Below, in pieces: positions 10,908-34,379 of a DNA stretch of 64,000 bases. Position numbers and translations under genes: made by a program. This DNA is from Nitrospirota bacterium (lineage in GTDB: Bacteria; Nitrospirota; UBA9217). Position 1 is the stretch's first letter; each line of letters opens with the position of its first letter. The stretch spans positions 32,001 through 96,000 of the forward strand of contig CAVTRN010000001.1 in the NCBI GenBank assembly GCA_963737155.1, read 5' to 3'. Below the pieces are notes generated by a model. That model saw only the letters and a list, made by a program, of their open reading frames with translations. It made no database searches and was not told the origin of the DNA.

Positions 10908-10934
10908 TTCGTGGACCCTCCTTCTTGGGGCTTG

Positions 10935-11017
10935 ATTTTATGCCAATCGCACCGTTTTGTCAATTCTTTAGACCAATTCTTTAGACCAATTGTACGCTTC
11001 TTTTAACCAAGAGTCAA
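10935..11017 (-). promoter_or_regulatory. Two tandem sigma70 promoters for dcm-vsr-ecoRII
   Basis: TTGACA(10958-10963)-17-TAAAAT(10935-10940) and TTGACT(11012-11017)-17-TACAAT(10989-10994). Confidence 0.65.
10961..10991. repeat. 13-bp tandem direct repeat, candidate operator
   Basis: CAATTCTTTAGAC x2 plus CAATT, overlapping both dcm promoters. Confidence 0.7.
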
Positions 11018-11032
11018 GTATTAAGGATTTAC

Positions 11033-11061
11033 TTGCTTTATGGGAATAAGTATGGTATAAA
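11033..11061 (+). promoter_or_regulatory. sigma70 promoter for LexA-like gene, probably leaderless
   Basis: TTGCTT-17-TATAAA with an extended -10 TG. ATG at 11069 lies 7 nt downstream and there is no RBS. Confidence 0.55.
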
Positions 11062-11068
11062 AGATAGC

Positions 11069-11737
11069 ATGCATCCTATTCAAGAAAAACTCTTCGAACT
11101 GTCGAATAAGAAAAACCTTGCCGAACTGAGTCTCAGGGAGATGGCCGGCGCAATCGGCCTGCCTCACGAATCCCCCCAGAAAATCAAGCACCATCTTCTT
11201 CAGCTCCAGAAGAAAGGGCTTGTTACCATAGATCGCGCCAAGGGTACGATGGAGCGTGCATCATCGACGCCTGGCTGGGCAAAAGGCCTCCTACACACGG
11301 CTTCCCATCTTTTTTCCATCCCTGTCATCGGAACCGCGAATTGTGGGCCGGCCACCATCTTTGCCGAGCAGAATTTCCAAGGGATACTTCGCGTATCGGG
11401 CAAGCTAGTCGGGCGCTCGAAGCCGACGGGACTCTACGCGATCAAAACCGATGGATCGTCCATGAATCGCGCCGAAGTCAATGGAAGGCACATCGAGGAT
11501 GGAGATTATGTCATCATCAATAAAAATGATGTCGATGTGAAGAGCGGGGATGTCGTCTTGGCAATTATCGACAACAAAGCGACCATCAAAAGGTTTATCG
11601 ACGACCGTGCAAACGGGCAGATCGTCTTGATGGCCGATTCCTCGTATGATTACGAACCTATTTACCTCCATCCCGATGATGATTTCAGCATCAGCGGGAA
11701 AATTGTTGCGGTAATTAAAAAACCGGTTCGCGCATAA
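11069..11737 (+). CDS. LexA/S24-family autocleaving transcriptional repressor
   Basis: N-terminal winged HTH (SLREMA...HHLLQLQKKG), cleavage loop IGTANCG, catalytic GSSM and TIKRF. Start placed at MHPIQ. Confidence 0.85.
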   Translation: MHPIQEKLFELSNKKNLAELSLREMAGAIGLPHESPQKIKHHLLQLQKKGLVTIDRAKGTMERASSTPGWAKGLLHTASHLFSIPVIGTANCGPATIFAEQNFQGILRVSGKLVGRSKPTGLYAIKTDGSSMNRAEVNGRHIEDGDYVIINKNDVDVKSGDVVLAIIDNKATIKRFIDDRANGQIVLMADSSYDYEPIYLHPDDDFSISGKIVAVIKKPVRA

Positions 11738-11790
11738 GAGAAGAAACAAATGGTTATCAAACAAAAAGATTATTATTAAGGGATAAAAAT

Positions 11791-12843
11791 ATGGCATACG
11801 AAATAGACTACATTCCCGTTGGAGATGGAGAAAAAGGTGGCGATGCAATAGCATTGCGCTTTGGGAACCTTGCGGGACCGCGTGCGGAACAGGTAGTGGT
11901 TGTTATTGACGGCGGTTTTCAAGATTCCGGCGAAGAGTTGGTAAACCACATAAAGACTTTCTACAAGACGGACTTGGTGGATGTTGCGGTTTCAACTCAT
12001 CCGGATGCAGACCATGCATCGGGGCTTTCTGTTGTTATGGAAAAACTTCGCGTAAGCACGTTAGTCATGCATAGGCCATGGGAACATGCAGCGGATATAA
12101 AAGGGATGTTTAAAAACGGGCGCATTACCGTTGCCGGGCTTGAGGACAGAATAGAGAAATCGCTCCAGTATGCAAGTGATCTGGAAGCACTGGCAACCAA
12201 AAAAGGGGTACGCATAGTGGAGCCGTTTCAGGGGGTGACAGGCTTTAATGGCGCTTTGCATATCCTAGGGCCGTCACAGGAGTATTATGAAAGCCTTTTG
12301 CCTCTTTTCCGCGCTACTCCTGAACCGGTAAAATCTATCGGGATCTTTGCTCCGATAAGAAAAGCAGTGGAAGAAGCTATCAAGTGGGTCCAGGACCAGT
12401 GGGACATCGATCTGCTCGACGATGATGAAGATACGACATCTGCCGAAAACAGTACAAGCGCGATCATGCTCTTTAATCTCGATGGCCATAAGCTATTGTT
12501 CACAGGCGACGCGGGAAAAAACGCTTTACATCTTGCGGCCGATTATGCAGAATCACAGGGAATCCAGCTCACCGATCTCCAGATATTGGATGTGCCTCAC
12601 CATGGCAGCAGAAGAAACCTGAGCAGTGGGGTGCTGAAGAGAATCAAGGCTAAAACTGCGTCTATCTCTGCACCAAAGGCCTCACCGAAACATCCTTCTA
12701 AAAAGATCATCAATGCTTTGAAAAAGCACGGTTCGAAAGTTTATGTTGTAAAAGGCCAGAAGCTTTGTCATCCCTACCAAGCACCGGAGCGTGGCTGGTC
12801 TTCCGCAACCGAAGAACCGTTTCATGATTATGTCGAAGAGTAA
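11791..12843 (+). CDS. MBL-fold metallo-hydrolase (ComEC/Rec2-like)
   Basis: VGDG..GD, IDGG, THPDADHASG, FTGDAG, VPHHGS, HP. Confidence 0.9.
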   Translation: MAYEIDYIPVGDGEKGGDAIALRFGNLAGPRAEQVVVVIDGGFQDSGEELVNHIKTFYKTDLVDVAVSTHPDADHASGLSVVMEKLRVSTLVMHRPWEHAADIKGMFKNGRITVAGLEDRIEKSLQYASDLEALATKKGVRIVEPFQGVTGFNGALHILGPSQEYYESLLPLFRATPEPVKSIGIFAPIRKAVEEAIKWVQDQWDIDLLDDDEDTTSAENSTSAIMLFNLDGHKLLFTGDAGKNALHLAADYAESQGIQLTDLQILDVPHHGSRRNLSSGVLKRIKAKTASISAPKASPKHPSKKIINALKKHGSKVYVVKGQKLCHPYQAPERGWSSATEEPFHDYVEE

Positions 12844-12857
12844 GCGGATAAAGGCTT

Positions 12858-13547
12858 ATGACCGATAACGACAAAAATACTATGGCAAAAAAAGAATCGC
12901 TCAAAGAAAAAAACACTCCGCTTATCGTCATCTTTATCGTCTGGTGCTTGGCTCTCTACGCCGTATTCGTGATTTCACCCTCGGATTTTTGGGATAAGCT
13001 GCAGTCCACGTTCAAGGAGATCAACGCGAAAGACGGTCTCATCTTCATTATCTCGCCGATTCTGACGTTAATCCTTACAGGACTGGTCAGTTCTGATAAC
13101 AAGGCCAAGCTCGTATTCTGGAAATGCAGGTACGCGCTACCGGGGCATCGGGCATTCTCTACGGTGATCCGACATGATGTCAGGATCAATAAAAAGCAGC
13201 TGGCGCAAAAGATGGGATCGTTTCCAAAAGGCCCCAAAGAGCAGAACAGCCGATGGTATTCAATTTACAAGCGATACTCGGTAGCTCCGATGGTCCTCCA
13301 CGCTCATAAGCAATTTCTTCTCTCCCGAGATCTTTGTTCTATTTCTTTTCTTTTTTCATTTATCGGCCCTTGGGGTCTTCTTCTCTTCGGCCACAAGTTA
13401 TCCTGGGTGCTATTCTATGCGTCGGTGATGTTCGCGCATTATCTCCTATTCATGGTAGTATCTCGAAACCATGGCAATCGATTTGTCTGCAATGTTCTGG
13501 CTGAGTTTATGGCAGATAACAATCCAGGTCCTGCTGCAGGTCAGTAG
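12858..13547 (+). CDS. Multi-pass membrane protein (2+2 TM), unknown function
   Basis: Two hydrophobic pairs flank a basic soluble loop (LPGHRAFS...EQNSRWY). Starts 14 bp after the MBL gene. Confidence 0.75.
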   Translation: MTDNDKNTMAKKESLKEKNTPLIVIFIVWCLALYAVFVISPSDFWDKLQSTFKEINAKDGLIFIISPILTLILTGLVSSDNKAKLVFWKCRYALPGHRAFSTVIRHDVRINKKQLAQKMGSFPKGPKEQNSRWYSIYKRYSVAPMVLHAHKQFLLSRDLCSISFLFSFIGPWGLLLFGHKLSWVLFYASVMFAHYLLFMVVSRNHGNRFVCNVLAEFMADNNPGPAAGQ

Positions 13548-14419: not shown

Positions 14420-16165
14420 TTATTCTTCATATTTGATGTCAACTTTTATACCTAGCAGTTTTTCGGAATCAGACTGATCTGTTAAAACCAACACTGTATT
14501 TTGCTCTATTATATTCTCGTATTCATCTTTTTTTAGGTATCTTTTTATTTCTTCAAGTTGGTTCTGATTTATGCTCGCAATGTACTGATGTCCCTGTTTA
14601 TTGTTTGTAAACATCTCGGCAACGATCCTAAAAAGAGCAGTTTTCTGTATTTCGTCAATTCCATCAAACAAACGGCTATCATGAAACACAAAATTCATAT
14701 TATGACCGTAACCTTTAAATAATAAGGTCAAGTCATAGCAAAATATTTTGACGTGATTTATCCCGTCGGACGCATCCGCATCAATTCGTGCGTCAATATT
14801 ATACCGTATTTGGTTTTCTCCCTCATTATTGTAGACTGTAATACCTGATGAAGCTTCTGGATAAAACTGCTTGGCCAGGGATCGGAAAAAATCTCGAACC
14901 CCGTCAATTATAGCCCTCGAATCCTCTAAATAAGAGTCTGTTCTACGAACTGCTTCAAGCATTTCTTCTCGAATTTCGAGATCAGTATTATGATACTCTG
15001 CGATCAACTTGTCATATTTTATAAGGTTATCTTTCTTCATACGTAAATCAGATAGGCGCTGAGTCACTTTTACAAAAACATCTAGCGCCTGATGTGCCCC
15101 TAAGTATTGTAACATTCTATCCAGATCATTACGCAATTGCTTGTGAAGGTCTGTTTTACTCTTTAGCAGCTTCTCAATGCGGCGTTTCTGTTCAGTAAGT
15201 CTTTTCTGCCGGTTCTTTATGAGACTCTCATAAAATAACTTTACTTGTTCAAGACTATAGGTTACTTGATCAGGGAATAGTATTCCAGCCTCTGCATAAA
15301 TTTTTTCAATACCGTCTGTTCCTACCTCTGGTGCCACTTTTAAGCTTTTATCAATATTCTCTATTTGATAGCCAAGCAAAACTACATTATTATTAATCTC
15401 GGTCAAATCTTTTTCAATTCGATCTGCTGTCCACTTAACTTCATAATAATCGTCCGCAACTCGAAAATATTTTATGTCAGTCTCAACCTTCGAAATCTTA
15501 TCGTCGAGATCTTTCGCTGCAAGCTGAGGGTCCGCACTCCCTGCAAAAAAATTCTTCAGCAGCTCATCATTTTTGATATTATCCGTTAATGTTTTTACCC
15601 TGTCCTTTTCTTTTTTATAATTTAGCTTTTCTTGTGCTAAATTAAGATCAAGCCCCAACAAGAAGGCATTATTAAGCATCTTCTGATAATCGGATCCAAC
15701 CTTTAAGGATTGGTCGTAAGATACATATGATTGCATATATGGGCGAATAAAAAAAGGAAGCAATGATCGGAAAGACAAATATTTGATTTCCTCAGGCATA
15801 TCAAAACAGAGCTTCTCGAGTATGTCATTGAACTTCGTAATCCTCAATTCATTGTTATTTAAATAAATGACTCCGGGATTGTTTGTCCCTCGCCGTGCAG
15901 TATAATTTTCAAGTTTCGCTTCAAATTCAAGAAAAAATTCCCAGTCTGGCAATTCTTTACAAAAAGACTTGTAGTGCTTTTCGGAAGCGCCAAGACAAAA
16001 ATGGATAATTGAAATAAGTATAGACTTACCGACACCGTTATAAGTTTTTCCTTTTTCAGTTGAGTCCTGTTTGCTATGTTTCGCCACAACAAAACTCAAA
16101 CCATTATAATTGAACTTAACAGGCCTGAAAGAGGATTTATTGGCATTAATAGAAAGTAATCTCAT
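14420..16165 (-). CDS. lmuB: Lamassu/ABC-3C SMC-like ATPase (DUF2326)
   Basis: Walker A NGVGKS, SFRSLLPFF, long coiled coil, SDGINHVKIFCYD and FHDSRLFDGID. Confidence 0.85.
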   Translation of the reverse strand: MRLLSINANKSSFRPVKFNYNGLSFVVAKHSKQDSTEKGKTYNGVGKSILISIIHFCLGASEKHYKSFCKELPDWEFFLEFEAKLENYTARRGTNNPGVIYLNNNELRITKFNDILEKLCFDMPEEIKYLSFRSLLPFFIRPYMQSYVSYDQSLKVGSDYQKMLNNAFLLGLDLNLAQEKLNYKKEKDRVKTLTDNIKNDELLKNFFAGSADPQLAAKDLDDKISKVETDIKYFRVADDYYEVKWTADRIEKDLTEINNNVVLLGYQIENIDKSLKVAPEVGTDGIEKIYAEAGILFPDQVTYSLEQVKLFYESLIKNRQKRLTEQKRRIEKLLKSKTDLHKQLRNDLDRMLQYLGAHQALDVFVKVTQRLSDLRMKKDNLIKYDKLIAEYHNTDLEIREEMLEAVRRTDSYLEDSRAIIDGVRDFFRSLAKQFYPEASSGITVYNNEGENQIRYNIDARIDADASDGINHVKIFCYDLTLLFKGYGHNMNFVFHDSRLFDGIDEIQKTALFRIVAEMFTNNKQGHQYIASINQNQLEEIKRYLKKDEYENIIEQNTVLVLTDQSDSEKLLGIKVDIKYEE

Positions 16166-16398
16166 TTTTCCAATACCCCATCATTTTCTTTAATTGCGTT
16201 TATGGTATATAGAAAGATGATAGCAAGCACTAATTTATCAAAACTGATTCTCACAGTATAAACACCTTCGTTAAAGTCTTTATTGTATTGTTCCCATATT
16301 TCATCGATACTCTTCGGTTTCGATAGATTGCCCAGAATGTAGCTACCTAAACCGATAATAGATTCTGATAAATTAATATGTTTAGTCGGCAATAGCAT
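16162..16398 (-). CDS. lmuC: Lamassu/ABC-3C middle component
   Basis: 78 aa (MLLPTKHINLSES...FDKLVLAIIFLY), overlapping both neighbours. Confidence 0.8.
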   Translation of the reverse strand: MLLPTKHINLSESIIGLGSYILGNLSKPKSIDEIWEQYNKDFNEGVYTVRISFDKLVLAIIFLYTINAIKENDGVLEK

Positions 16399-17303
16399 TA
16401 GTGTTTGGTAGGCTCTTCAAAAATATCGCAGACCTCAAAATACTTGGCCATTATAACAAGGACAGCATTCTGATACGCTGAACCGGCTTTTGGACTTGCC
16501 TCGGCAAGAATATACATGAATAATTTATCGCCTTTTTTAGTTTTCTTGCCCAAAAGATACAACCTAAGCAGTTTATCCTTGAGTTCCTCAGCAAGAAAAT
16601 CGCCGTTGTTTTTTAAATACTCTTCAAGGCAACCAACTTGAATGTAAGCACTGTTGAGATAACTCGCAATAGTTTTTGATAACTTGTTAAATTTTATTTT
16701 TTTCGACCAGTCAGGGATATTATAAGACGTTCCGCCCTTTGGAATTAGCGAAATACTCATAATATGTGCTACAACTTCATTAAGAACACTATAATCTAGA
16801 ATCTTAATGTTTTGCGGGTCCGGCAAGAATCCGACAACATTCGTAATTTGATCTTCCTCCAATTTAAACAATATATTTTCTAAATGCTTTGTAGTAATGA
16901 ATCCCGCCTTTTTCAACTTATGATTCTTTTTAATCTTCTTGAGGTTTTTCTCGCTGTCTGCATTCACACCCTTGTACTTGTCATTAACTACAAAATAAAA
17001 CTCATTTACTGGGCTCCATTGCTTTTTGAGGCCATCAAAATCCTTTAACAATTTTTTTACAACAGCGGGATAAGATTGCTGTATCTCTTCTGGAGCAAAG
17101 ACCTGATAAAAAATTCCTTTCGATTTGATATACCCATCATTTTTTCTATCTCCGATATTCCCCCACGGTTTAATTTGTTGAAAATCATGCTCCGCATAAT
17201 TCATAATCCTAGTAAACAGATCTTCGAATGCATTGCCATCGGATTGATTTATTCTGTTACGGAATAAAATTCTCGCGAGTGTCTTCTCAACACTGTTCAT
17301 CAC
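16398..17303 (-). CDS. lmuA: Lamassu/ABC-3C effector: restriction-endonuclease-fold N-terminus and CTD
   Basis: GNAFEDLF...GDRKNDG...YQVFAP nuclease-like motif; C-terminal KIKFNKL...YFEVCDIFE. Confidence 0.8.
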   Translation of the reverse strand: MMNSVEKTLARILFRNRINQSDGNAFEDLFTRIMNYAEHDFQQIKPWGNIGDRKNDGYIKSKGIFYQVFAPEEIQQSYPAVVKKLLKDFDGLKKQWSPVNEFYFVVNDKYKGVNADSEKNLKKIKKNHKLKKAGFITTKHLENILFKLEEDQITNVVGFLPDPQNIKILDYSVLNEVVAHIMSISLIPKGGTSYNIPDWSKKIKFNKLSKTIASYLNSAYIQVGCLEEYLKNNGDFLAEELKDKLLRLYLLGKKTKKGDKLFMYILAEASPKAGSAYQNAVLVIMAKYFEVCDIFEEPTKH

Positions 17304-17383
17304 ATACCTTACACTTTAGATATTTTTGAAATATTCACTACAATGTTCGATCTTCTATTTGTAATTTCTCTGAGCCTCTCAAG

Positions 17384-17520
17384 TCATCCATGAACATAAT
17401 GCATGGTACTCCTGATATCCGCGTGGGGCGAAGCAGAGCTTGAGCAGCTTTCGCATCTTCGCAAGTTTCCACGATCTGAGTAGCAAATCAATGCCTTGAC
17501 ACTTCGTAATGTGTGAATTT
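17384..17520 (-). pseudogene. Tyrosine recombinase C-terminal relic
   Basis: Manual translation gives KFTHYEVSRH*FATQIVETCEDAKAAQALLR[fs]HADIRSTMHYVH, matching the box II RH, H and catalytic Tyr region, with one stop and one frameshift. Confidence 0.7.
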
Positions 17521-17617
17521 AATCTCCGGAATGCTACAACGCCCCCAAAGTTTTTGAGATATAGTCAGGGGTAGTATCTTGAAAAGTTAGGTCGCGAACG
17601 AGCAAGAAATCAAATAC

Positions 17618-18994
17618 TTATGGTTTGTATAACGGCACCTCTGATCTTTTATTTATACTATTTCCGAAACTTGACCCAAACGACTGCTGAGCTTCGATAA
17701 CAATGGTGTGGCTAAGTGGTCGGCGAACAGATTCTGGTGTAACACCAGCTTTCAAAGCATGCATGACACCGACCGCTTCAAGATAATTTTCCACAATAAA
17801 GAGTTTGCCCGGTGCAAACGGCAAAGCATCCAATCTGTTCTTCATGCGGTTCTTATTTTCTCTGACTGCTATTATCGGTATCCCCTGCTCCAGAGCAGCT
17901 AAAGTCGGAAGGCCGATGCATCCATCTGGAATAACAAGACAAGATATATCTGTCGAGCTCAAGACCCCCGCGCGTCCAAAATCCGCCGGATTCGTCACTA
18001 GCCTGGGGCTCTTATGAAGCCCCTTGAGGATGCAATGCAAAAAAGTCAACGAGATTGCTTCAGCGGCTTTTCTGGGCTCGACAATTCCTAAGTCGAGATT
18101 CATAATGTCCTTCGATTCCATCATAGGTGAATGGGCCGATGGGGTATTAAACAACATGGAAATTGCATGAGTCAGCATTGCTTCTACCCCACCCCACGGG
18201 TTTATTGTCTCTTCAGAAAAATATTTTAGATGGGTAGTGTTGGTTAAATTTATAAGCGATGATATGGCGACGGCATCATACTGAGAACGGTATTCGGTCA
18301 GAAGTTCACATAACCGCTCAAGATATTCTATCCGCCCGACAGCTCTCCCCGAGCTTGAAACGAGGGCATCCATCTGGATTGTTTCTTCCATCTTTACAAC
18401 TAAGGGACAATCCAATCCCATGGACGCACGTACAGCAGAGACTGAGTTTACCGTGGCCTCACAGAAATACTCGTCTTCATGTTTGTCCATAACAAGCATT
18501 ATCCTGTTTGATCTTACTTTCTGCAGGCCCACTGTTCCCATCAGTATACGTGCTATGATGCTGCCTTCCACGTAGAGCCCATTTTCCGGCAGTTCATTGA
18601 TGTCGGACGCATTAACCACGTTCGGATGAGTTATGAGTGAATCGCATGCCGAGGCCAGGAGCCGCGCCACAGGGCCTCCATCTCCGGAATGGCCGCCAAT
18701 CTCTGCATCTATGCCGGTGGGGATGAGCAAAACAGTATTGAAGTGGTCAGAATTCTCATAGCTTCTCCGGTTAAATTCAAAGATGGAACTCTGCGACGGC
18801 ACAAAGTTGTAATGGACATCGGACATGACTCCGAGCTCACAATGATACCCCGTGTTGTCAGTCTGCGTAACAACAAAGCGAACCGGTATTTTCCCAAGAG
18901 GGATCTGCTTTAATACCTCATTTGAAAGATATGACAATATCCCTTCATGATTGTGGTTATTAGGTATGGCAACTTCCTGCTCATAAAGTAACAT
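17618..18994 (-). CDS. DUF3326 domain protein
   Basis: IPTGIDAEIGGHSGD, LITHPNVVN, NPWGGVEAMLTH, PRKAAEAIS. Likely ATG at 18994 with a GGAGAG RBS inside the end of the upstream gene. Confidence 0.8.
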   Translation of the reverse strand: MLLYEQEVAIPNNHNHEGILSYLSNEVLKQIPLGKIPVRFVVTQTDNTGYHCELGVMSDVHYNFVPSQSSIFEFNRRSYENSDHFNTVLLIPTGIDAEIGGHSGDGGPVARLLASACDSLITHPNVVNASDINELPENGLYVEGSIIARILMGTVGLQKVRSNRIMLVMDKHEDEYFCEATVNSVSAVRASMGLDCPLVVKMEETIQMDALVSSSGRAVGRIEYLERLCELLTEYRSQYDAVAISSLINLTNTTHLKYFSEETINPWGGVEAMLTHAISMLFNTPSAHSPMMESKDIMNLDLGIVEPRKAAEAISLTFLHCILKGLHKSPRLVTNPADFGRAGVLSSTDISCLVIPDGCIGLPTLAALEQGIPIIAVRENKNRMKNRLDALPFAPGKLFIVENYLEAVGVMHALKAGVTPESVRRPLSHTIVIEAQQSFGSSFGNSINKRSEVPLYKP

Positions 18995-20171
18995 TTTTAA
19001 TCTCTCCGCATCGTGAAATGAAATCCTCGTAACCAAATTCCTTTTTTAATTCCAAATGCCCGTCCTGCGTATACGCATAGATCGAGGGCAAATTGACACC
19101 GTTGAACATGTGCGCCTTTACCATAGTATAGGCCCCCATATATTGAAAGACAATCCGGGAACCTAATTCGAGCGGTTCCGCAAATCTATATGTGCCGAAG
19201 ACATCACCTGCAAGGCATGTGCAACCCGCAAGGATATACTCGTGTGGTCCATCGGATGATTCCTGCATGATTTCGGGCCGATACTGATACTCGAATATCT
19301 CCGGCATATGGTTAACAGTAGTATCGAGAACGGCTACTTTTTTTCCATCGCTCTCGAAAATATCGATAACGCTCGATACAATATATCCCGCCTCTTCAAC
19401 TACACCTTGGCCGGGCTCGATAAAAACATCGAGTTTGTATTTATCCTTTATGAGCCCTATGGCCGCGTAAAAGTCGGCCGGATCGGCCTCGTTGAACAGA
19501 TATCCTCCCCCCAGATTGATCCAGGAGATGTCAGACAAAAGACGGGGGATTTGGCGATCCAAATACTTCACGGTTGCGAGCAACGGCCCATAGGTTTCGG
19601 AGTTGCTATTCGTGTGGAAGTGAATACCTTGTATTTCGCTGCAAAGCCGCTTATTCTTTTCAAGAGCTTTTTGGAGTTGTGTTAGCGGAACTCCAAGCTT
19701 GGAATGTTTTCTGCAAGGGTTATATCGTTTGTCTTCAACAAAAGACAGTTGAGGATTGATTCTTAATCCACAGCTTGCTTGCACAGATGCCTGCCTCGAA
19801 AACCGTTCCCACTGGGAGAGCGAGTTGAAACTGATGTTGTCGGCTACTCCAGTAATATCCTCTATTTCGCAAGGCTTATATCCGGGTGTTACCATGTGAA
19901 CAGTTCCGGAAGAACCAAGAACCTCTCTTGCTAGTTTTGCCTCAAACAGGGAGCTTACCGAAAAACCATTTAAGTGAGGAACCATCAAGGGCAGCGCATC
20001 ATAGACAGCAAAGGACTTTAATGAAAAAAACACCTTGCAGCCAGCTTTCAGATTATCCGCTTTTAGCATCTCTAGTGATTGAATGATAGTTTGTTCATGA
20101 TATATGAATGCCGGCGTCTGTTTGATGCCCGAATATATTGAAATGTTTTTTTTCGTTATTCCGTTGTACAT
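18981..20171 (-). CDS. nspC: Carboxynorspermidine decarboxylase-like PLP enzyme (fold type III)
   Basis: FSLKSF, YNPC..SKLG, IHFH, INLGGG, IEPG, TCLAGDVFG, YTMVK..FNGVNLP. Confidence 0.85.
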   Translation of the reverse strand: MYNGITKKNISIYSGIKQTPAFIYHEQTIIQSLEMLKADNLKAGCKVFFSLKSFAVYDALPLMVPHLNGFSVSSLFEAKLAREVLGSSGTVHMVTPGYKPCEIEDITGVADNISFNSLSQWERFSRQASVQASCGLRINPQLSFVEDKRYNPCRKHSKLGVPLTQLQKALEKNKRLCSEIQGIHFHTNSNSETYGPLLATVKYLDRQIPRLLSDISWINLGGGYLFNEADPADFYAAIGLIKDKYKLDVFIEPGQGVVEEAGYIVSSVIDIFESDGKKVAVLDTTVNHMPEIFEYQYRPEIMQESSDGPHEYILAGCTCLAGDVFGTYRFAEPLELGSRIVFQYMGAYTMVKAHMFNGVNLPSIYAYTQDGHLELKKEFGYEDFISRCGEIKNVTL

Positions 20172-20906
20172 TTAGGCACCCTTCGGTATAGATATGTTAA
20201 AAGGAGGCCCATCCAACTTCTTAAATCTGCAAAAAGCTCTCGCGACTGCAGCAAATTCGTGATTTGCAGCCATGAGCGTGCTAAATATGTTTTTCTTATT
20301 TGTTAAGATACCTTGTTGCGCATTATGATATGCATGCAATAAAGCAAAATATTCTGAAAGAAGCTCTTCAACGATAAAAGTTCTGTGCCTTTTTGTATAG
20401 AACGGTGCATGCAATTTAACAATATCAATTGTAAGTCGCCCCATTTTACTGCTATTCTTCGCTTTAGGAATACCTAGCTCCTCGAAATTTGACTCATCCA
20501 CAATAAAGTCAATGTGGTCTTCTGGATCTATTTTAGGATCACTTGGATCAATTAAAAGAGTTTTCCCCCTCTTAGAAGAGCTTTTTTTTAAATAAACAAC
20601 TTTGGGATTATTGCTATCATTTGTCAGTTCAACTGGAAATTTGTCGGATTTACTTCCATTACACTGAGCACATGCTAACAAAAGATTCTTCCAATCGTTC
20701 TTTAAAAATTTAAAAATAGACTTCGGCTGAAAATGCTCGACTGCTTTTGAATGGCCCTCGTCTGGGATTAACTGTTCACAATAACAGCACTTCCCTTTCT
20801 GCATTTGCCAAAGGGTTTTTACAACTTTTTGCTTGTTGTAATGAGTCCCCTTCTGCGGAGAATTTTTCAAAATATCAGGCGCCAGAGCCCGGTTAACTTT
20901 TATCAT
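20172..20906 (-). CDS. ptuB: Septu PtuB-like HNH endonuclease
   Basis: KCCYCE, VEHFQPKS, WKNLLLACAQCNGSK, LIDP...DPEDHI. Confidence 0.85.
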   Translation of the reverse strand: MIKVNRALAPDILKNSPQKGTHYNKQKVVKTLWQMQKGKCCYCEQLIPDEGHSKAVEHFQPKSIFKFLKNDWKNLLLACAQCNGSKSDKFPVELTNDSNNPKVVYLKKSSSKRGKTLLIDPSDPKIDPEDHIDFIVDESNFEELGIPKAKNSSKMGRLTIDIVKLHAPFYTKRHRTFIVEELLSEYFALLHAYHNAQQGILTNKKNIFSTLMAANHEFAAVARAFCRFKKLDGPPFNISIPKGA

Positions 20907-22203
20907 TGAATATTTTTTGTTCTAATGTTTTGATGTTTTCCCGCATTGCTGTATATATATCTGCCTGCACATCTCTTACGAATTCCGTATCGCCAGTCGG
21001 CTGTATTGCGTTCCTTAAATATTCTTTTATCTCGTTATATTTTCTATTTTCTTTTGCCGTACGCTTTTTCCCTTTGCCAGCCAATTCCGATATTTCTTTC
21101 AATACATTTTCCAACTCCTCATCAGTTTTTACCAAATGCCCAAATGGTTTAGAAGCCAGTAGTTGATCATATTGTAATCCTTTGAACCCGATAATTTCTT
21201 TTTCACTAAAAATATAGTCTTGAATTTTGCTCTGTTCTGGTACAAAAGAGAAATGTATAACCTTTGATCCACTAAATTTGGATCCCTTGGGCTTGACTAA
21301 TTGGCCAATACTGCCTACGATCAATGGCGAGTGAGAAGTTGTAATGAATTGCACATTGGGGAAAGCCTCTCGTAACCTATGAACAATATTTCTCTGCAAT
21401 TTAGGATGTAAATGCAATTCGACTTCATCAAGCAAAATAATTCCACTAATATTCTTCGGATTGCTTTCTTTCTGACGCCGCCCTGCGTGGTAGATTTGCC
21501 AGCCGATGAAATCCAATAGCCATGTGAATGTTGTGCGGTATCCATCCCCGAAGTCTTCAAGAAAAACGTCTCCCTTGGGGGTTTTGACAACAATGCCATT
21601 AGGTGAGCTGTCTAAAATAATATTTTGTTTCGATGTATTAAAGATGTCAAGCATTAAAATGCTTTCGATTAATTTCAGCAATTGATGCTGTCGTTTCTTA
21701 TTCTGTCTATTTAATATTAATTCAGGATTCTGCAAGGATGACGCATAATTGAACATGGTATATACAGCTTCTAATATAGAATAATCGCTAAAGCTGTTAT
21801 CACCCGGGATCGATCTCTGAATTCCATACCCACAAACAAAAACTTTACGTCTGAGATCTTTCCCCCTTATCACATTCTGATAGATTGTTTCAAAACCTTT
21901 TTTACTTTCCAAAACAGTTTCTATGATTAGTGATTTTTTTGTTTTAGGATCGAAAAGAGTGATTTTGATTATTCCTCTTCTCGATAAGTCTCTAATGAAG
22001 CTGCCATATAATTCTTTCATGAGCGCTGCACCGCTCAACTCGTCGCAAAGACCTATTGCAATACAGCGCAAGAAACATGTCTTTCCAGATGCATTGTCGC
22101 CAAGAATAGTATTCCACCGCGCGGGAATGCCACCATTTTCGAATGAAATCTTTATCTCATCGAAACATCTAATATTCTTTATGTAGACTTTGGAAATATA
22201 CAT
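20893..22203 (-). CDS. ptuA: Septu PtuA-like ABC ATPase
   Basis: MYISKVYIKNIRCF, GDNASGKT, signature-like FGDGY, LLDEVELHLHPKLQ and TSHSP. ATG at 22203. Confidence 0.85.
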   Translation of the reverse strand: MYISKVYIKNIRCFDEIKISFENGGIPARWNTILGDNASGKTCFLRCIAIGLCDELSGAALMKELYGSFIRDLSRRGIIKITLFDPKTKKSLIIETVLESKKGFETIYQNVIRGKDLRRKVFVCGYGIQRSIPGDNSFSDYSILEAVYTMFNYASSLQNPELILNRQNKKRQHQLLKLIESILMLDIFNTSKQNIILDSSPNGIVVKTPKGDVFLEDFGDGYRTTFTWLLDFIGWQIYHAGRRQKESNPKNISGIILLDEVELHLHPKLQRNIVHRLREAFPNVQFITTSHSPLIVGSIGQLVKPKGSKFSGSKVIHFSFVPEQSKIQDYIFSEKEIIGFKGLQYDQLLASKPFGHLVKTDEELENVLKEISELAGKGKKRTAKENRKYNEIKEYLRNAIQPTGDTEFVRDVQADIYTAMRENIKTLEQKIFNDKS

Positions 22204-22434
22204 ATTTAAAAAATTGTTGTTATTTAATCTACTAACTTCGCTTAGCACTCTAAGCTAAGCAGATTTATAAGGTAAGTTAACGCATTTTCTGATATTATTG
22301 TTGTAAAAAAATGAGCGAAGAAGTACTAATAGAAAAAGACTATATCATGGTTGAAGAAGAAAATGCAAGCGGATTTGCTCCTGCACATTGCGGTATCCTG
22401 GCTTATTAATGTCTTTACTCAATGAGGTGCGAGA

Positions 22435-23619
22435 ATGCCGAAGAAGGTCAGCATCGTCACAGGGCCAATAGTTGGCCTTCGCTCTACAAAATTTATTGAA
22501 GAAACTACTGCGTTTGCGAAGACTGCCGGCGAAAAAGTCGTTCATTTCAACTTATTCAGCGAAATACTCGATCATTGTGGCATCGTAGCCCGTAATGCTT
22601 ATGAAGAGATTCTGCATATTGGCAATCTGTTCAACGGCTATGAATATCAATTCAGGTGCATGCGCGAAAAAGCTTATCTGTCTCTTGCCAGAAAGATTGA
22701 TCGCCTGGGGAAGGACGTCAGTGTCATTATCAGGACTCCCGCGTCGATAGAATGGCGGGGATACAACTTGATTCTGAAGGACCACCGGATTATTGCGGAA
22801 GCAATAATGCCGGACCTGATTGTAACCCTTATAAACGCCGAATGGAAAATAAAAGATCATTTAGCAGGGAATTATGGCAAGCATGTTTTAAAAGTGATTG
22901 CACAGCAAAAGGAACTGACAGTCCCCAAAATACTGGAGTGGCTGGCTTCTGAAGTATCGGCCAGCGAAGACTGGGCTGAGTGGGCAAGTCACCTGACGAA
23001 AAAGAAAGTGAAACACATCGTTTTCGGAATGGAAACGCCAGGCTACAAGGACAGAAAGAAATATGTTCGCGATGTTGAAGGCCTCGCGAAGCTGGTAACG
23101 CAGAAAGATGTTCCCACTTTTTACACATCGTATTCCATGACCGTAGCGACTGAACCTGTAAGAAAGAAAATAAACGACGTTATCTGGAAGCTGCGAGCAT
23201 ACGGCGTAGTCATTGATCCTGCATCGATAGAACTCGGGACCAATGTCGACAAAGAACACGAGAATATAGTTTTCGCCTATACCATTTGCAGAGACCTGCG
23301 ATGGGATGTGCAAAAGGTTGACGCAGTGGTTGCCATCCACCCTTATGATGAAATGCCGCCACTCAGTACGGGCATGATGGACGAACTCGGTCATGCCCGC
23401 GCGTATGGGAAAGACAGATATTTAATACTTCCAAAAGGTGGAGGTAGCCCATTCACGCGAGATAATTACGTGCCTGCCAACCATGTCTTTAAGACAGAGG
23501 CAGAGTTCTTTAATTTTGCGGAAAATAAACGGAGACCTACGCTCAAACCCAAGTACGAAAAGTTCCAGAAAGCATTTGCGACCTGGCAGACAAAACATGC
23601 GAAAAAAGATCAAAAATAA
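22435..23619 (+). CDS. Archaeal adenylate-kinase-like domain fused to nucleoside deoxyribosyltransferase-like domain
   Basis: N-terminal IVTG with a degenerate P-loop, PDLIVTL and ILEW..SE. C-terminal YTSYSMT, DP, RDL..D.VVA and STGMMDELGHA...GK. GAGG RBS. Confidence 0.6.
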   Translation: MPKKVSIVTGPIVGLRSTKFIEETTAFAKTAGEKVVHFNLFSEILDHCGIVARNAYEEILHIGNLFNGYEYQFRCMREKAYLSLARKIDRLGKDVSVIIRTPASIEWRGYNLILKDHRIIAEAIMPDLIVTLINAEWKIKDHLAGNYGKHVLKVIAQQKELTVPKILEWLASEVSASEDWAEWASHLTKKKVKHIVFGMETPGYKDRKKYVRDVEGLAKLVTQKDVPTFYTSYSMTVATEPVRKKINDVIWKLRAYGVVIDPASIELGTNVDKEHENIVFAYTICRDLRWDVQKVDAVVAIHPYDEMPPLSTGMMDELGHARAYGKDRYLILPKGGGSPFTRDNYVPANHVFKTEAEFFNFAENKRRPTLKPKYEKFQKAFATWQTKHAKKDQK

Positions 23620-23633
23620 TTACGGGAGGCATC

Positions 23634-24359
23634 ATGCAGAGATTACTTGTAAGCGTTCGGGGACCGCAGGAAGCAATTGCAGCTATTAAAGGGGGGGCTC
23701 ACATAGCTGATGTCGAATATCCTGCTTCTGCTCTTGGGACCCCATATCCGCTCAATATCCTCACTGTTCGCAATAGGCTGAACAAGGCCGGATATAAGAG
23801 GATACCGGTGTCAACCAATATTGGTGAGGTACCGGGTGTGCGTGCTTCATCTTGCCAGGCGGCCTTGGGCGTAGCAACTGCGGGGGCTGATATCATCAAG
23901 TGCGGCATGGCCGAACTACCGTATGATGCTGCGGTTTATCTCGGCAATCTTATGGTCCGGACCATCAAGAAATTCTATCCGAGAAAAAAAGTTGTGACTG
24001 CCGTGTTCGTCGATGACGACATGAGAAGATACTTTGACCCCTTTGCCGAAGGGATAGCGTTGGTGAAAGAGATCAATGCAGATGGCATCCTTATCGATAC
24101 TTTCAATAAATCGATCGAGAAAGGACTTCTGGATTACTGTATAAAGAAGGATTTGAGAACACTTGCTAAAAAGTGTCACAGGGCTGGGAAGGAAGCCTGG
24201 ATTGCGGGCTCCATTACAAGGGAAGATTTACCGGACCTATGGGCTACGGGCGTTGATGTAATTTGCGTCAGAGGCGCTGCTTGTGAGAAGACAGGAAAAG
24301 GGCGATTTGGCGAAGTTAAGGCAAAAATCGTTAAGGATCTTGTTTCGACCTGTCTATAA
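23634..24359 (+). CDS. MfnB / 4-HFC-P synthase family TIM barrel (variant active site)
   Basis: LLVSV..EA..A..GGA.I.DV.YP..LG, GADIIKCG, LIDT..K, AGS and VRGAAC. GGGAGG RBS. Confidence 0.8.
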   Translation: MQRLLVSVRGPQEAIAAIKGGAHIADVEYPASALGTPYPLNILTVRNRLNKAGYKRIPVSTNIGEVPGVRASSCQAALGVATAGADIIKCGMAELPYDAAVYLGNLMVRTIKKFYPRKKVVTAVFVDDDMRRYFDPFAEGIALVKEINADGILIDTFNKSIEKGLLDYCIKKDLRTLAKKCHRAGKEAWIAGSITREDLPDLWATGVDVICVRGAACEKTGKGRFGEVKAKIVKDLVSTCL

Positions 24360-24446
24360 CCATAGCGGGATTGGGAAGATTGCCTGATAAGATAAATTGC
24401 AATGTTTATCCCTTTATTCTCTCATCACGATTGGCTTTTCGGGCTC

Positions 24447-25481
24447 CTAAAGACCAAAGGCCCGTAAATCATTCTTCACTGCTTCGACACCACTCCAGTC
24501 CGAGATTCGTCGGCGAAACATATAATAGCATGGGGAATCAGGCCATGAAAGCTGCATTGCAGCCTTGAGTGCATCTGCTGGTCGCGCCTGAAGTAGAAGT
24601 TGCTCTGAGGCAGGCGGGATTTCTCTTGGAATTGTGTCCCAAATCGCTGAATCTTTAGAGGTGAGCCCGGCACGTACGCATGCACAAAGCTGTTTCGGAT
24701 GGCTGTAGCTACGCCTTCCGCGCGCCACTGTCGCAGGAAATAGATCGCCTAAAACACTAACGACAGATATATAAGAGCGAAGGACTGAATCGGCAATTAC
24801 ACTGGCCGAGGGACGGATGTCCCGTAGCGTACACCAGTGCTCCCATGACTTCCCCCCGTTTCTCTGACTATCTATAGGTTGATCGAACTGCTGGCGTTGC
24901 CATCCGTTGAACCGGTAGGCGTCGTCATTGGCTCCGCGTGCTGATATATGGCCTATCGAAGTTCCTTCAACAAACCCAAGCAATTTCGATCCCTGAAGAA
25001 GCACCCGTGCCGCTGGTGAGGCTAGAGGATGCGTCGAGGCCTGTCCTTCGGATTCTACTGTCAGAGATGAAAAATATTGGTCAAGAGTGGGGTTATAAGA
25101 GATTTCAATCCATAACAGACGACCATCGGTCGCTTGCCGAACTCCACCGGCTGCAACTACGTGGCATGAAATGTGCCAAGCTCCATTGTCACCTGAGGCA
25201 CCAGGGCCCAAATCCGCCCCATTAATAATTGTCCGATCAAGCCACATACGCCGAATTGCTTCGAGGTTCTCATCGCTATCGGATAAACTTCCTCCCTCTT
25301 CAATTTGAAAGCCGAAAATGCCGCGTTGCATAGTCGCCTCCTGGCGAACCTCAGAAAACAAGGCATTTCGAGTTGTTTCTTTGTCCTTCTTGCGCTGCCA
25401 ATAAATGCGCCCTACGACTACGGCTGTCCCAATCAAAGCGGCAATGAGCACTGCATTTATAATTAGCTGCAGGACTGTCAT
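24447..25481 (-). CDS. Hypothetical protein with N-terminal TM anchor
   Basis: 344-aa ORF with an AAGGA RBS, hydrophobic N-terminus then RKKDK. Confidence 0.65.
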   Translation of the reverse strand: MTVLQLIINAVLIAALIGTAVVVGRIYWQRKKDKETTRNALFSEVRQEATMQRGIFGFQIEEGGSLSDSDENLEAIRRMWLDRTIINGADLGPGASGDNGAWHISCHVVAAGGVRQATDGRLLWIEISYNPTLDQYFSSLTVESEGQASTHPLASPAARVLLQGSKLLGFVEGTSIGHISARGANDDAYRFNGWQRQQFDQPIDSQRNGGKSWEHWCTLRDIRPSASVIADSVLRSYISVVSVLGDLFPATVARGRRSYSHPKQLCACVRAGLTSKDSAIWDTIPREIPPASEQLLLQARPADALKAAMQLSWPDSPCYYMFRRRISDWSGVEAVKNDLRAFGL

Positions 25482-25933
25482 ACATCCTTTCTACGTGATG
25501 ATTCGTGCTTCTCCCGATGAGGCGTGAATCCCGGATTTTGAATAAAACGACAAGGAAAATATATTAATTGTCAAGGCGGATTTCGGATTAACGAGCGCCC
25601 CTATGAGACCGCTCAATAGATTAGATTAATAAAGAGGATTGAGTTGTTTCATCTGGTGGCACAAGATTACCTTCCTAAATTGTTTTAAATATGCTCGAAT
25701 TCATGGCATATTTCAGCAACGCTCCTACGCACGATTTCTACTTGTACCATGCATTCAATTAACCAATACAAAGATTTGTAGTTCAGTAAGATCGTTTGGT
25801 TGAAATTATCAACCAGTAGTTCAGTATTCTTTTCTCCGGCCGGTATCGCGGCCACCTACTAATGCACAATCACACCAAGGAAAAAAAACATGTCAAATAT
25901 CAATCGAAACATGTTGAACATTCGCGGGAGATA

Positions 25934-28039
25934 TCATTTTTTCCGTTTTTGTCTGTATCGCGGTGAATGAGTAAGACTCAAATGAGAACGTACAATGACA
26001 TCCATGTGGTTGCTCATGGTAAAGTCTGTATAATCGTATTTTTTAGGAGTTCGTAATTTACGAATGCATAGAGCAAATATAGGAGCAGGGACTATCATCA
26101 AAAGTCGTTTATGTTCAAAAAAAAGAGCCTTAGTTCTATCCTTCTCGTTATCTGTTAAAGCTTCGCTTTTCCCACGTCTAACCGCTATAGCGAAACTGCC
26201 ATATTCGCCGCTTGTATAATCTAATATTTGTCTGAAGTCGTCAGGTGTTAGTTCTTCGTAGTTCTTGCATTCAAAAACAATTTGCCTGCTGCGGTAGTCC
26301 TCGTAAATTCTTTGCCAGAATGTTGTTTTAGTAATGTTAGTTGCTACAACATCTCTTTGATTCAAAGCTGCTGTCGGATTTGGTTTAAGTTCAATGTTCG
26401 TTAAAGATCCAGCGAACAATAATCTGACTGCCCTCGCTACCCACGTTTCAAAGGCACTACTGCCATCATGTCCCGTGGGGATGCCCGATAGTTCCTCAGG
26501 AAGCCTTCCGAGTCGCTTCAGGCGTAAATTGAACGTATCACTTTTTGGCGGGGCAGTATATTCATCGTTTACCTTGATTAACATTTCTGATGGCTCAGAT
26601 GTCACCGATATGTCAAGCGCCTTCCAGTAACAAGGGTGAATAAGGGTTTCACGATTCGGGTCCGCGGTTAGAAGTTCAGACATGGCACCATCATGACAAA
26701 ACAAATAATTACCAGAGCTAGCATCTTTAAGTCCTATAAACCCGACACTGTAAAGGGCCGAAAACATCTCGCTACCGGTTTCAAAAAGAATTAAATCTCG
26801 AGCGGCACTATCTGCATAGTCGTTATGATCTGCGATATATTGCAAATGATCTGATACTGCTCGAAAAGGTTGCAACGCAGGCAGACCGTGAAAGCTTGTC
26901 ACAAAAAGACGAAGTCCCGGTAAAACTTTATCGTACTCTTTACACAAGTCCTCGAGCCTGTACTGTGAAATACTAATCGCGCTCTTTTCTATATCGTTCT
27001 CAATAAGAACATTGCGTCCTTCGCGAGTTGCGTTTACATATGATTCGTTGAGTAGTACCAGAATATCCCTAGGTCGAAATAGTGTAAATCTCAAGCACTT
27101 ATTAAAACCTTCGCGATTCTGAAGTTCGCGCTGAGCGAATCTGTTCCAGACCTTCACTTCATTTTCTACGCTATCTAGTTTAAGTACAATGCGCAACCGG
27201 GCAGCAATAAAATGGAAGAGCGACTCTTCATTCCACTGTAAGCGGAGTGTATGCCCTTCAATATGGCGTGTAAAATCATCGTCGAGTTGTGCAAGAGCTC
27301 GAATCATGTTATCTCTGATAAACAAAATTGGATAAAAAGGAAATCGTCTTTCTCGATATTCTGATGCTGTTCTAGCAAGACCACCAAGAATGGATACGGA
27401 AGGGACATCTGGAACCCATGCTTCATCGAGACGGTCGTAAAGAGCTACGATCCGAAGCTCCGTTTTTTCGAGCGCCTCATGAAGGGAATCAGTAACTTGT
27501 CTAACCTGGTAGTTTGTCGCAATTATTCGTGCAATTTCTTCCTTCGAAGGAGAACCAGATAATGTTCTTTTCAAAATTGCCATGCAATTTGTAATGCCAC
27601 TTCCGGTGCAATAATCTTGGTGTCTTTTAATATACTCATTTAGAAATACTGCATTTTCTGACTTATTAAACAAATAATGTGTAGAAACAGCACTTGTTGA
27701 CCTGAGCAGAAAATGCACTGTCCAGAGTAAACGTGATATAGGACGTAGAAGGCGATATTCTTTGGATATAGATGCGAGAAGCGATTGCATCTCTAGCATT
27801 TCATAATCTTGCGGCTCTTCAGTAATTAATATCGTACCAGTATCAGATGACAAAACATCTTTTAGCCGTTGATATATTGCACTCTTCCCAGTTCCTCGAC
27901 GCCCAACAACATAGCTAAAATCCGTGGTGTGAAGCAAAGCTTGGTAGTCAGCTGTTTCAATAAAACCCTGGCTCAACATTTGCCGATCTGCTTCGGCTTG
28001 TGCTGATCCAAGTAGGTTTCCAATCTTTTTATTTTGCAT
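25934..28039 (-). CDS. Sll1717-family P-loop ATPase with C-terminal restriction-endonuclease-like domain
   Basis: LGSAQAEAD, VVGRRGTGKS, YDRLDE, FIRDNM, RPRD and LYSVGFIG. C-terminal AFE...RDVV...FECKNY. Confidence 0.8.
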   Translation of the reverse strand: MQNKKIGNLLGSAQAEADRQMLSQGFIETADYQALLHTTDFSYVVGRRGTGKSAIYQRLKDVLSSDTGTILITEEPQDYEMLEMQSLLASISKEYRLLRPISRLLWTVHFLLRSTSAVSTHYLFNKSENAVFLNEYIKRHQDYCTGSGITNCMAILKRTLSGSPSKEEIARIIATNYQVRQVTDSLHEALEKTELRIVALYDRLDEAWVPDVPSVSILGGLARTASEYRERRFPFYPILFIRDNMIRALAQLDDDFTRHIEGHTLRLQWNEESLFHFIAARLRIVLKLDSVENEVKVWNRFAQRELQNREGFNKCLRFTLFRPRDILVLLNESYVNATREGRNVLIENDIEKSAISISQYRLEDLCKEYDKVLPGLRLFVTSFHGLPALQPFRAVSDHLQYIADHNDYADSAARDLILFETGSEMFSALYSVGFIGLKDASSGNYLFCHDGAMSELLTADPNRETLIHPCYWKALDISVTSEPSEMLIKVNDEYTAPPKSDTFNLRLKRLGRLPEELSGIPTGHDGSSAFETWVARAVRLLFAGSLTNIELKPNPTAALNQRDVVATNITKTTFWQRIYEDYRSRQIVFECKNYEELTPDDFRQILDYTSGEYGSFAIAVRRGKSEALTDNEKDRTKALFFEHKRLLMIVPAPIFALCIRKLRTPKKYDYTDFTMSNHMDVIVRSHLSLTHSPRYRQKRKK

Positions 28040-34302: not shown

Positions 34303-34379
<77 letters not shown>

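Follow-up and report, generated by a model that had tools for sequence, protein, structure and literature searches.

Why should a Septu-type nuclease be encoded in the midst of genes for small-molecule enzymes? The question is raised by a stretch of 64,000 nucleotides from a Nitrospirota bacterium (contig CAVTRN010000001.1, positions 32,001 to 96,000; hereafter the window), which holds a self-contained cassette of about 8 kb. Here ptuA and ptuB share an operon with genes for a decarboxylase of the carboxynorspermidine type (nspC-like) and a DUF3326 protein, together module P, and face a divergent operon, module F, which encodes a kinase/nucleoside 2-deoxyribosyltransferase (NDT)-like fusion protein (X394) and an MfnB-like barrel. 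With a probability of roughly 0.4, we favour a Septu variant in which the PtuAB nuclease would be set, via its ATPase, by small molecules made in the cassette; this reading starts from observed gene families, folds, synteny, modularity and PtuAB swapping. All six genes that a first-pass annotation had listed at 17618-24359 are present, by Pfam, NCBIfam and PADLOC profiles and, for X394, by fold.

At profile level the nuclease pair is that of Septu: a PtuA-type ABC ATPase with an HNH PtuB encoded directly downstream. PtuA matched PADLOC PDLC00304 (E 2.8e-55 over residues 15-422 of 451) as well as Pfam AAA_15, AAA_21 and AAA_23, and the stretches GDNASGKT and ILLDEVE of its translation are presumably Walker A and Walker B. 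PtuB matched PADLOC PDLC00339 (E 3.4e-26) and Pfam HNH (E 3.6e-6). With stand-alone Septu the pair shares the ABC-type ATPase and HNH nuclease, the overlapping co-directional genes, the near-full-length PADLOC matches and a defence-island setting. It departs from stand-alone Septu in missing the NCBIfam equivalog cut-offs for PtuA (NF041760, 104.5 against a cut-off of 500) and PtuB (57.7 bits against 150), and in lying in one operon with a decarboxylase and a DUF3326 gene, facing the kinase-NDT/MfnB-like operon. No such enzymes were found with stand-alone Septu as described in those parts of the literature that the search covered.

Sister loci were collected by a genome scan (one genome per species) that found 139 X394 loci, the best 80 of which were kept, and by a metagenome scan with a single X394 protein as query, which gave 3 further loci. 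The closest relatives, in which X394 is at least 69% identical (clade A), comprise 8 evaluable loci, several of them on short or frameshifted contigs of metagenome-assembled genomes (MAGs); their records are named Thermodesulfovibrionia, Nitrospirae and delta proteobacterium, plus metagenome contigs. Open reading frames (ORFs) in sister loci are longest-ORF picks, and absences by tblastn and hidden Markov model (HMM) apply within the fetched flanks. In 7/8 of the clade-A loci (window, L002, L003, L012, L082, L083, L084), PtuA(B) and the X394/MfnB-like pair are divergent, the decarboxylase and DUF3326 genes lie downstream of PtuB in 5/5 of those that reach that far, and the PtuAB pair never stands alone. 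The supposed co-occurrence of all six families thus holds in the closest clade; in other loci the modules also occur apart. None of 40 relatives, 14 from the same genus, was found to carry the cassette DNA.

Between L002 and L012, the MfnB-like and DUF3326 proteins are each 95% identical and PtuA and PtuB only 30% and 32%; between L002 and L083, PtuA is 97% and X394 77% identical. Other pairs of loci show identities of 62-68% for DUF3326 and 64-88% for the MfnB-like protein, and by these comparisons the cassette enzymes co-diverge with one another. Gene order and orientation are retained where the enzymes are only 62-80% and PtuA 30-44% identical. The PtuAB sequence has thus been exchanged and its slot kept. 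Functional coupling finds its strongest argument in this, and a generic small-molecule link is favoured over co-evolved protein contacts. The GC content of ptuAB (37%, vs 44-48% for the enzyme genes) might be taken to mark a recent insertion into a metabolic divergon. We rejected this explanation because ptuAB is AT-richer than the X394 and MfnB-like genes in every sister locus; the identity comparisons support repeated in-situ replacement of ptuAB. The decarboxylase slot has also changed hands: in L003 it is filled by a non-homologous 126-aa AdoMet_dc (PF02675) gene.

In module P, the nspC-like protein scored 327 bits against TIGR01047 (below the cut-off of 409), and its best solved relative is the carboxynorspermidine decarboxylase 9eaf (E 4e-84), with which it clearly has the fold family in common. 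For the carboxynorspermidine dehydrogenase partner, the sole PF03435 match in the genome is one of 27 bits over positions 1-69 of 129, away from the cassette. Canonical norspermidine biosynthesis was rejected on these grounds, a sub-cut-off score and no clear dehydrogenase partner in the genome. The second protein of the module matched PF11805 (DUF3326) with an E-value of 8.9e-90. This family is large (6558 hits among 8000 scored candidates) and its occurrence rare and patchy (5/300 and 3/401 genomes in two sampled phyla). The AlphaFold 2 (AF2) model of the DUF3326 protein (pLDDT 82) had no PDB match by Foldseek at E ≤ 0.001, and its VIA-align rows were generic Rossmann-like, GT-B and lumazine-synthase-like ones with Z 8-10, near the stated background; its sequence matched no PDB sequence.

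There is one functional lead for DUF3326, and it is genetic. PavB, a DUF3326 protein, and PavA, which is carboxynorspermidine-decarboxylase-like, are both required for the triamine N-(5-aminopentyl)pentane-1,5-diamine, according to the accessible part of a preprint (bioRxiv 10.64898/2026.06.12.731819). The window pair is alike in combining these two families. It differs from the pavettamine pathway, as far as that source goes, in that PavA has an extra Rieske domain and PavC is absent from the cassette, and also in that cassette relatives may use an AdoMet_dc-like or PS-decarboxylase-like partner and the window pair lies in a nuclease operon. DUF3326, nspC-like and PF04476 genes each occur once in the genome, inside the cassette, which agrees with the first-pass description of the enzymes as orphans.

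In module F, X394 had no Pfam, NCBIfam, PADLOC or PHROG hit (Pfam NDT: none at E ≤ 1), and a profile search of PDB sequences returned only chance-level matches to small chaperones. Its AF2 model (pLDDT 83, predicted template-modelling score 0.87) has two halves: the N-terminal half resembles archaeal adenylate kinases (Foldseek 6pjw, E 1e-7, template-modelling (TM) score 0.69 on target), and the C-terminal half resembles 2'-deoxyribosyltransferase and DNPH1 (7o62 and 8rpt, E 3e-4, TM about 0.63 on target). The earlier label of kinase/NDT therefore holds at fold level. The alignment of X394 homologues contains an invariant T-G-P-x-V-G-L-x-S stretch at the N-terminus and an invariant D-E-L-G stretch, which may correspond to the NDT-family catalytic Glu, a residue expected in a loop of the G-x-x-E-x-G type. 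Like known kinase-NDT fusions and NDT-like defence effectors (e.g. the retron-Eco1 effector), X394 joins, by its model, an NDT/DNPH1 fold to a P-loop nucleotide-kinase fold. It differs from them in having no sequence match to Pfam NDT or kinase families, in its archaeal-adenylate-kinase type of kinase half, and in its link to an MfnB-like domain in 17/21 loci outside the Planctomycetes-Verrucomicrobia-Chlamydiae (PVC) type. X394 had no match in PLSDB plasmids and one locus in viral contigs, of the ~40%-identity type.

The MfnB-like protein matched PF04476 (E 3.3e-39 over residues 4-236) and the solved relative MJ1099 (4rc1, E 5e-24); it fell below the NF002573 equivalog cut-off (117 bits, cut-off 341). 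In the alignment to MJ1099 the equivalents of D25, K85 and D151 are kept and K27 is replaced by Glu in the window, and likewise in L004 and in every one of the 6 aligned clade-A sister sequences. Methanofuran biosynthesis, whose MfnE is an adenylate-kinase-like kinase, also sets a PF04476 TIM barrel (MfnB) beside an archaeal-adenylate-kinase fold. The cassette differs from it in the change of Lys27 to Glu, in a score far below the equivalog cut-off and in the fusion of the kinase to an NDT-like domain. PF04476 has a single match in the genome, the cassette copy; other Mfn families were not searched for. MfnB Asp25, Lys27, Lys85 and Asp151 are reported to be essential, Lys27 being the Schiff-base residue (PMC6604932, in the part of the article available), and a protein without it is therefore not a canonical 4-(hydroxymethyl)-2-furancarboxaldehyde phosphate synthase. 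The name mfnB given in the first-pass annotation is right as to the fold and overstated beyond it. Canonical methanofuran biosynthesis was rejected on the missing Lys27, the sub-cut-off MfnB score and absent partners.

Each module also occurs in other company. The MfnB-like core HMM matched in 17/86 loci searched, all of them in the non-PVC X394 clade; of the other four non-PVC loci, L010 and L015 break off at X394 or inside it, and L007 and L009 gave no match. There were no matches in the 63 Verrucomicrobia/Lentisphaerae-type loci (0/63), nor in L092 and L093. In the clade in which X394 is 48-65% identical, the MfnB-like domain lies within 476-804-aa proteins adjoining X394, and no DUF3326 or nspC-like gene was found by tblastn. 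The partners there are EEP proteins (L004, L010, L011, L014), PLD proteins (L005, L006, L018), PADLOC 'trypsin-like' proteins of 722-776 aa (L008, L011, L017) and a NucS-like protein (L013); for the EEP partner of L004, no solved relative was found by sequence at E ≤ 0.01. Module P has its own further partners. A decarboxylase gene adjoins DUF3326 in the window, L002, L003, L012, L084, L092 and L093; in L092 the AdoMet_dc and DUF3326 genes follow an unrelated 577-aa protein, and in L093 a 400-aa protein with several hydrophobic segments, beside a ThsA/Dsr2-like SIR2 gene. We count the pairing of each module with other effector-like genes in favour of cassette metabolites that act on PtuAB.

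One of these loci also has a nuclease pair of its own. L018, from a Solirubrobacteraceae MAG, encodes a full-length PtuA-PtuB fusion (726 aa, PADLOC PDLC00292, E 2e-214; 3566-5746) and the 703-aa PLD protein (6626-8737) just upstream of the X394 homologue and MfnB-like gene, with a HEPN RiboL-PSP gene nearby.

DUF3326 is also encoded in 68 viral-contig loci (L101-L168), on contigs that carry portal, capsid, ribonucleotide reductase, ligase and similar genes, and a decarboxylase gene adjoins it in 61/68. An AdoMet_dc-like gene lies on the same strand in 53/68 (within about 130 bp upstream in 46/53), in 8/68 the neighbour belongs to a BLAST cluster of which the two members scanned with Pfam are PS_Dcarbxylase-like, and no decarboxylase was detected in 7/68. 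DUF3326 had no match in 50,697 GenBank phage records and has no PHROG family. The pair is interrupted in L116 and L143 by a homing-endonuclease gene (HNH_3, GIY-YIG) between the decarboxylase and DUF3326 genes. In L157, a Pam3-like phage contig, a gene for a 5-hydroxymethyldeoxyuridine (5-hmdU) DNA kinase (3235-4155; HMUDK_hel, E 2.6e-50) lies ~3 kb upstream of the AdoMet_dc-DUF3326 pair. It was the sole locus with such a gene in a scan of 62/123 listed neighbour ORFs from 11 viral loci, and it hints at a link with thymidine hypermodification. The viral pair links the host cassette to a phage-borne pair of enzymes, which may be a counter-defence or may reflect shared nucleic-acid modification chemistry.

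That the cassette acts against phage, which reactions its two modules carry out and in which direction control runs are all inferred here. The cassette would be horizontally mobile and would keep the PtuA ATPase and the HNH nuclease PtuB between two modules of two enzymes each. Module P, in the ptuAB operon, would most likely join an amino-acid-derived unit to an acceptor and remove the carboxylate to give an amine, a reading that the interchangeable decarboxylase folds fit. Module F, in the divergent operon and often with a further gene, u344, would most likely make or remodel a phosphorylated (deoxy)nucleotide or sugar-phosphate compound by means of its kinase fold, N-glycosyl-transfer fold and one-lysine aldolase-type barrel. 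The products, separate or joined, would act as ligands on the conserved nucleotide-binding ATPase rather than by specific protein contacts; the first-pass annotation had speculated on a single molecule with amine, sugar-phosphate-derived and nucleotide parts. A steady supply of product would keep the nuclease quiet and phage takeover would shift the supply and free it; as to the direction of control, restraint and activation are both possible.

DNA nicking by stand-alone PtuAB falls as ATP rises, and the retron Ec78 co-opts PtuAB and keeps it sequestered until infection (PMC12819146, both from the part of the article available). It is this ATP response, together with the retron precedent, that leads us to favour small-molecule control via the ATPase. 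The cassette would then be a Septu whose accessory module is enzymatic, a concept akin to that of retron-Septu: as in retron Ec78/Eco7 (type I-A), PtuAB would be under a separate conserved accessory module encoded alongside. In contrast to the retron, the cassette has four enzymes as its accessory module, control would be exerted by a metabolite and not by multicopy single-stranded DNA, and by the identity matrices PtuA is without sign of co-evolved partner contacts. No reverse transcriptase domain was found among 13 window proteins scanned, and no Rfam match at E ≤ 1 over window positions 17000-26000, the spacer between the two operons included; a riboswitch or non-coding RNA in the spacer was rejected on the latter result.

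A broader version of the mechanism, which we hold to be quite unlikely, is a metabolite-guarded immunity of interchangeable parts. The enzyme pairs would make an 'all is well' amine-bearing or nucleotide-like ligand that holds off PtuAB, PLD, trypsin-like or membrane effectors, and phage decarboxylase-DUF3326 pairs would resupply the ligand and disarm the system.

Several observations weigh against control of PtuAB by cassette metabolites. X394 is highly conserved across named phyla and has housekeeping relatives, and in this it resembles a metabolic enzyme more than a typical immune sensor: the best 120 of its 299 homologues are 58-91% identical, from sources named Thermodesulfovibrionales, Syntrophales, Thorarchaeota, Phycisphaerales, Ignavibacteria and Chromatiales. 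Solitary homologues (~37-46% identity, ~350 aa) are widespread in Verrucomicrobia, Methylacidiphilales and Lentisphaerae records (L020-L081, L096), and the 9 such loci annotated are all in housekeeping contexts, with a ThiF-rhodanese neighbour twice and DeoC once. The structural matches of DUF3326 are generic only and give no clue to its function, for which reason we rejected an assignment from fold. Elsewhere, no ligand-binding domain common to the partner nucleases could be detected, and the EEP partners (332-382 aa) leave little room for one; they are moreover as conserved as X394 (56-66% identity) and may be pathway enzymes rather than effectors. Within clade A, L015 is an exception, a 2.2-kb contig with another gene upstream of X394 (possibly transposase-like, judged by eye). 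L003 and L012 lie among housekeeping genes with no obvious defence island, and in L012 the nspC-like gene and X394 are each split into two ORFs (6638-7881, 9995-11133) beside an intact ptuAB, which could be assembly error or enzyme decay.

The separability of the modules is a further such point, as they may be two neighbouring systems and not a single pathway. X394 and the MfnB-like gene occur without DUF3326 in 10 loci, and the decarboxylase and DUF3326 genes occur without either of them in L092, L093 and the 68 viral loci. Independent distribution of the two operons, which the first-pass annotation had named as a result that would speak against its six-gene module, is thus found in part at the level of families, each enzyme pair having been seen without the other. 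We therefore regard the block as a fusion of two modules around PtuAB and not as an indivisible six-gene unit.

A different kind of nuclease system would arise if the four enzymes put an amine-bearing non-canonical deoxynucleotide or mark on host DNA and PtuAB, EEP, PLD and NucS-like proteins cut unmarked DNA. A constant 'modifier' core with variable nucleases resembles known modification-dependent systems. Kinase-NDT fusions, a recurrent deoxynucleotide-handling architecture in phages and bacteria (thymidylate-kinase/NDT and deoxynucleoside kinase (dNK)/NDT clusters; Atlas, scores 0.81-0.86, leads only), point the same way, as do the decarboxylase-DUF3326 pairs of the viral loci, which stand with bona fide phage genes, and the 5-hmdU kinase gene of L157. 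However, no DNA-inserting enzyme, DNA-binding or reader domain was found among the cassette proteins, the partner in L093, with its multiple hydrophobic segments, cannot restrict DNA, and a 30%-identical PtuA beside 95%-identical enzymes ill fits a specific reader of a mark. We consider modification-restriction unlikely.

Module F might instead defend the cell directly, through chemistry or the nucleotide pool, with PtuAB and module P a separate system; this we think quite improbable. The NDT/DNPH1-like domain of X394 would cleave or swap (deoxy)nucleotide bases, for example phage-specific ones, and its kinase domain and the MfnB-like barrel would process the products. The C-terminal fold of X394, which matches DNPH1 and NDT, and the D-E-L-G stretch with its presumed catalytic Glu suit such an activity, NDT-like effectors are known in retron defence from the parts of the literature available, and one Verrucomicrobia X394 homologue adjoins a DeoC-family aldolase. 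X394 and the MfnB-like protein are moreover a conserved stand-alone pair in the 10 loci mentioned above, which have neither DUF3326 nor an nspC-like gene. This explanation nevertheless has to reckon with PtuA as a neighbour in 7/8 evaluable closest-clade loci, it gives the strictly retained decarboxylase-DUF3326 pair no role, and the solitary housekeeping homologues suggest that X394 has no intrinsic toxicity.

Least likely of all, and very improbable, is that two ordinary metabolic pairs, one of polyamine and one of sugar-phosphate type, came to lie by chance or hitch-hiking beside an independent Septu on a mobile island: the modules do occur apart, ptuAB has a lower GC content than the enzymes and an incongruent history, and L003 and L012 have housekeeping neighbours, but order and orientation are kept at the low identities given above, PtuAB is replaced in situ and not lost, the decarboxylase fold is swapped with its slot retained, stop/start abutment and 14-nt overlaps tie ptuB, nspC-like and DUF3326 genes into one operon, and the cassette DNA is not found in 40 relatives.

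If control by cassette metabolites is true, the cassette would be a third mode of PtuAB, besides stand-alone Septu and the retron effector, with the same nuclease under chemical control, and it would give functions to three families that are now orphans, namely DUF3326, the kinase-NDT fusion and the MfnB-like barrels that lack Lys27. Each enzyme module may represent a new candidate family. None of X394, the MfnB-like, DUF3326 and nspC-like proteins and u344 is modelled in PADLOC v2, and nothing in the literature searched links the cassette enzyme families to phage defence; the same search gave no report on carboxynorspermidine decarboxylase and anti-phage activity, and none on S-adenosylmethionine decarboxylase, bacteriophage and hypermodification.

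The genes of the cassette and its right-hand neighbour u344 are listed in Table 1.

Table 1 Features of the cassette, in window coordinates.
Feature	Position	Strand	Basis	Description
ptuA	20893..22203 (ORF from GTG 22248)	-	PADLOC PtuA PDLC00304	ABC-type ATPase, Septu-like pair
ptuB	20172..20906	-	PADLOC PtuB PDLC00339 and Pfam HNH	HNH nuclease partner of PtuA
nspC-like gene	18981..20171	-	TIGR01047	pyridoxal phosphate-dependent decarboxylase, carboxynorspermidine-decarboxylase type, not equivalog
DUF3326 gene	17618..18994	-	PF11805	decarboxylase partner; likely start Met15 of ORF
Divergent intergenic spacer	22204..22434	none		between ptuA and X394
X394	22435..23619	+	AF2 model and Foldseek	394-aa archaeal-adenylate-kinase-like / nucleoside 2-deoxyribosyltransferase/DNPH1-like fusion
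MfnB-like gene	23634..24359	+	PF04476	class-I-aldolase-type TIM barrel without Lys27; begins 14 nt past X394
u344	24447..25481	-	no known family	344 aa, hydrophobic N-terminus

The leftward genes are tightly packed: ptuA and ptuB overlap by 14 nt, the nspC-like ATG abuts the ptuB stop, and the nspC-like and DUF3326 genes overlap by 14 nt. The AT-rich spacer of ~230 bp that had been described between the operons measures 231 bp at 33% GC from the ptuA ATG at 22203, and 186 bp from the first GTG of the ptuA ORF; the ATG is the likely start because all sister PtuA proteins align from that residue (residue 16). Both divergent promoters presumably sit in this spacer, where promoter-like sites were not above shuffle expectation. 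A 20-nt AT-rich stretch, TGCAAATAATATAATATTTT, is common to the divergent spacers of L002 (4930-5050), L082 (1290-1525) and L083 (1715-1845), about 40-60 nt upstream of the X394 start, and could serve as promoter or operator; the window spacer does not clearly contain it.

The supposed boundaries of the cassette were not confirmed. No Pfam family matched any of the three longest frames of the 'integrase relic' at 17304-17617, PF00589 had no match in the window at E ≤ 1, and DNA searches with the segment turned up nothing similar among the collected plasmids and no further copy elsewhere in the genome. On the other side, u344 had been taken for a mere convergent boundary gene, and its homologues adjoin module genes in sister loci: homologues with 42-51% identity immediately follow the MfnB-like gene, and share its strand, in L002 and L083, and immediately precede X394 in L006 and L008. 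Others lie in the vicinity in L005 and L011, which like L006 and L008 belong to the 48-65% identity clade. Convergent in the window and co-directional in sister loci, u344 is probably an optional seventh member of the cassette and not its boundary. No Pfam family matched it at E ≤ 1, and the Atlas gave nothing usable.

Known defence genes flank the cassette in the window, as they do several sister loci, and the setting in a defence island is thereby borne out. Directly to the left lies a complete ABC-3C/PDC-M68 trio (14420-17303: a 581-aa DUF2326 ATPase, the 78-aa MC6 and the 301-aa CTD10); an ABC-3C CTD10 gene is also found near the X394 locus of L016. Further left are a LexA-like S24 protein and a PDC-M48B metallo-β-lactamase-fold protein with an unannotated 229-aa partner (11033-13547), and an EcoRII-like endonuclease, Vsr and a Dcm-type C5 methylase (8151-10907). 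To the right of u344, 25934-28039 encodes a 701-aa Sll1717-family P-loop ATPase (NF047389, E 1.4e-67), the C-terminal region of which matches PADLOC PDC-M36A. The island also holds a NERD-helicase and a GIY-YIG protein.

A tRNA-Met gene at 34303-34379 lies where the low-GC half of the window (45% vs 53% GC) ends on the right, and the island ends nearby. Two intact tyrosine-integrase genes (G000:C1:23886-25798) lie outside the window, 6-8 kb left of its start, and together with the tRNA-Met gene they suggest one genomic island of ~42 kb. An ISL3 transposase is encoded at 36696-37997.

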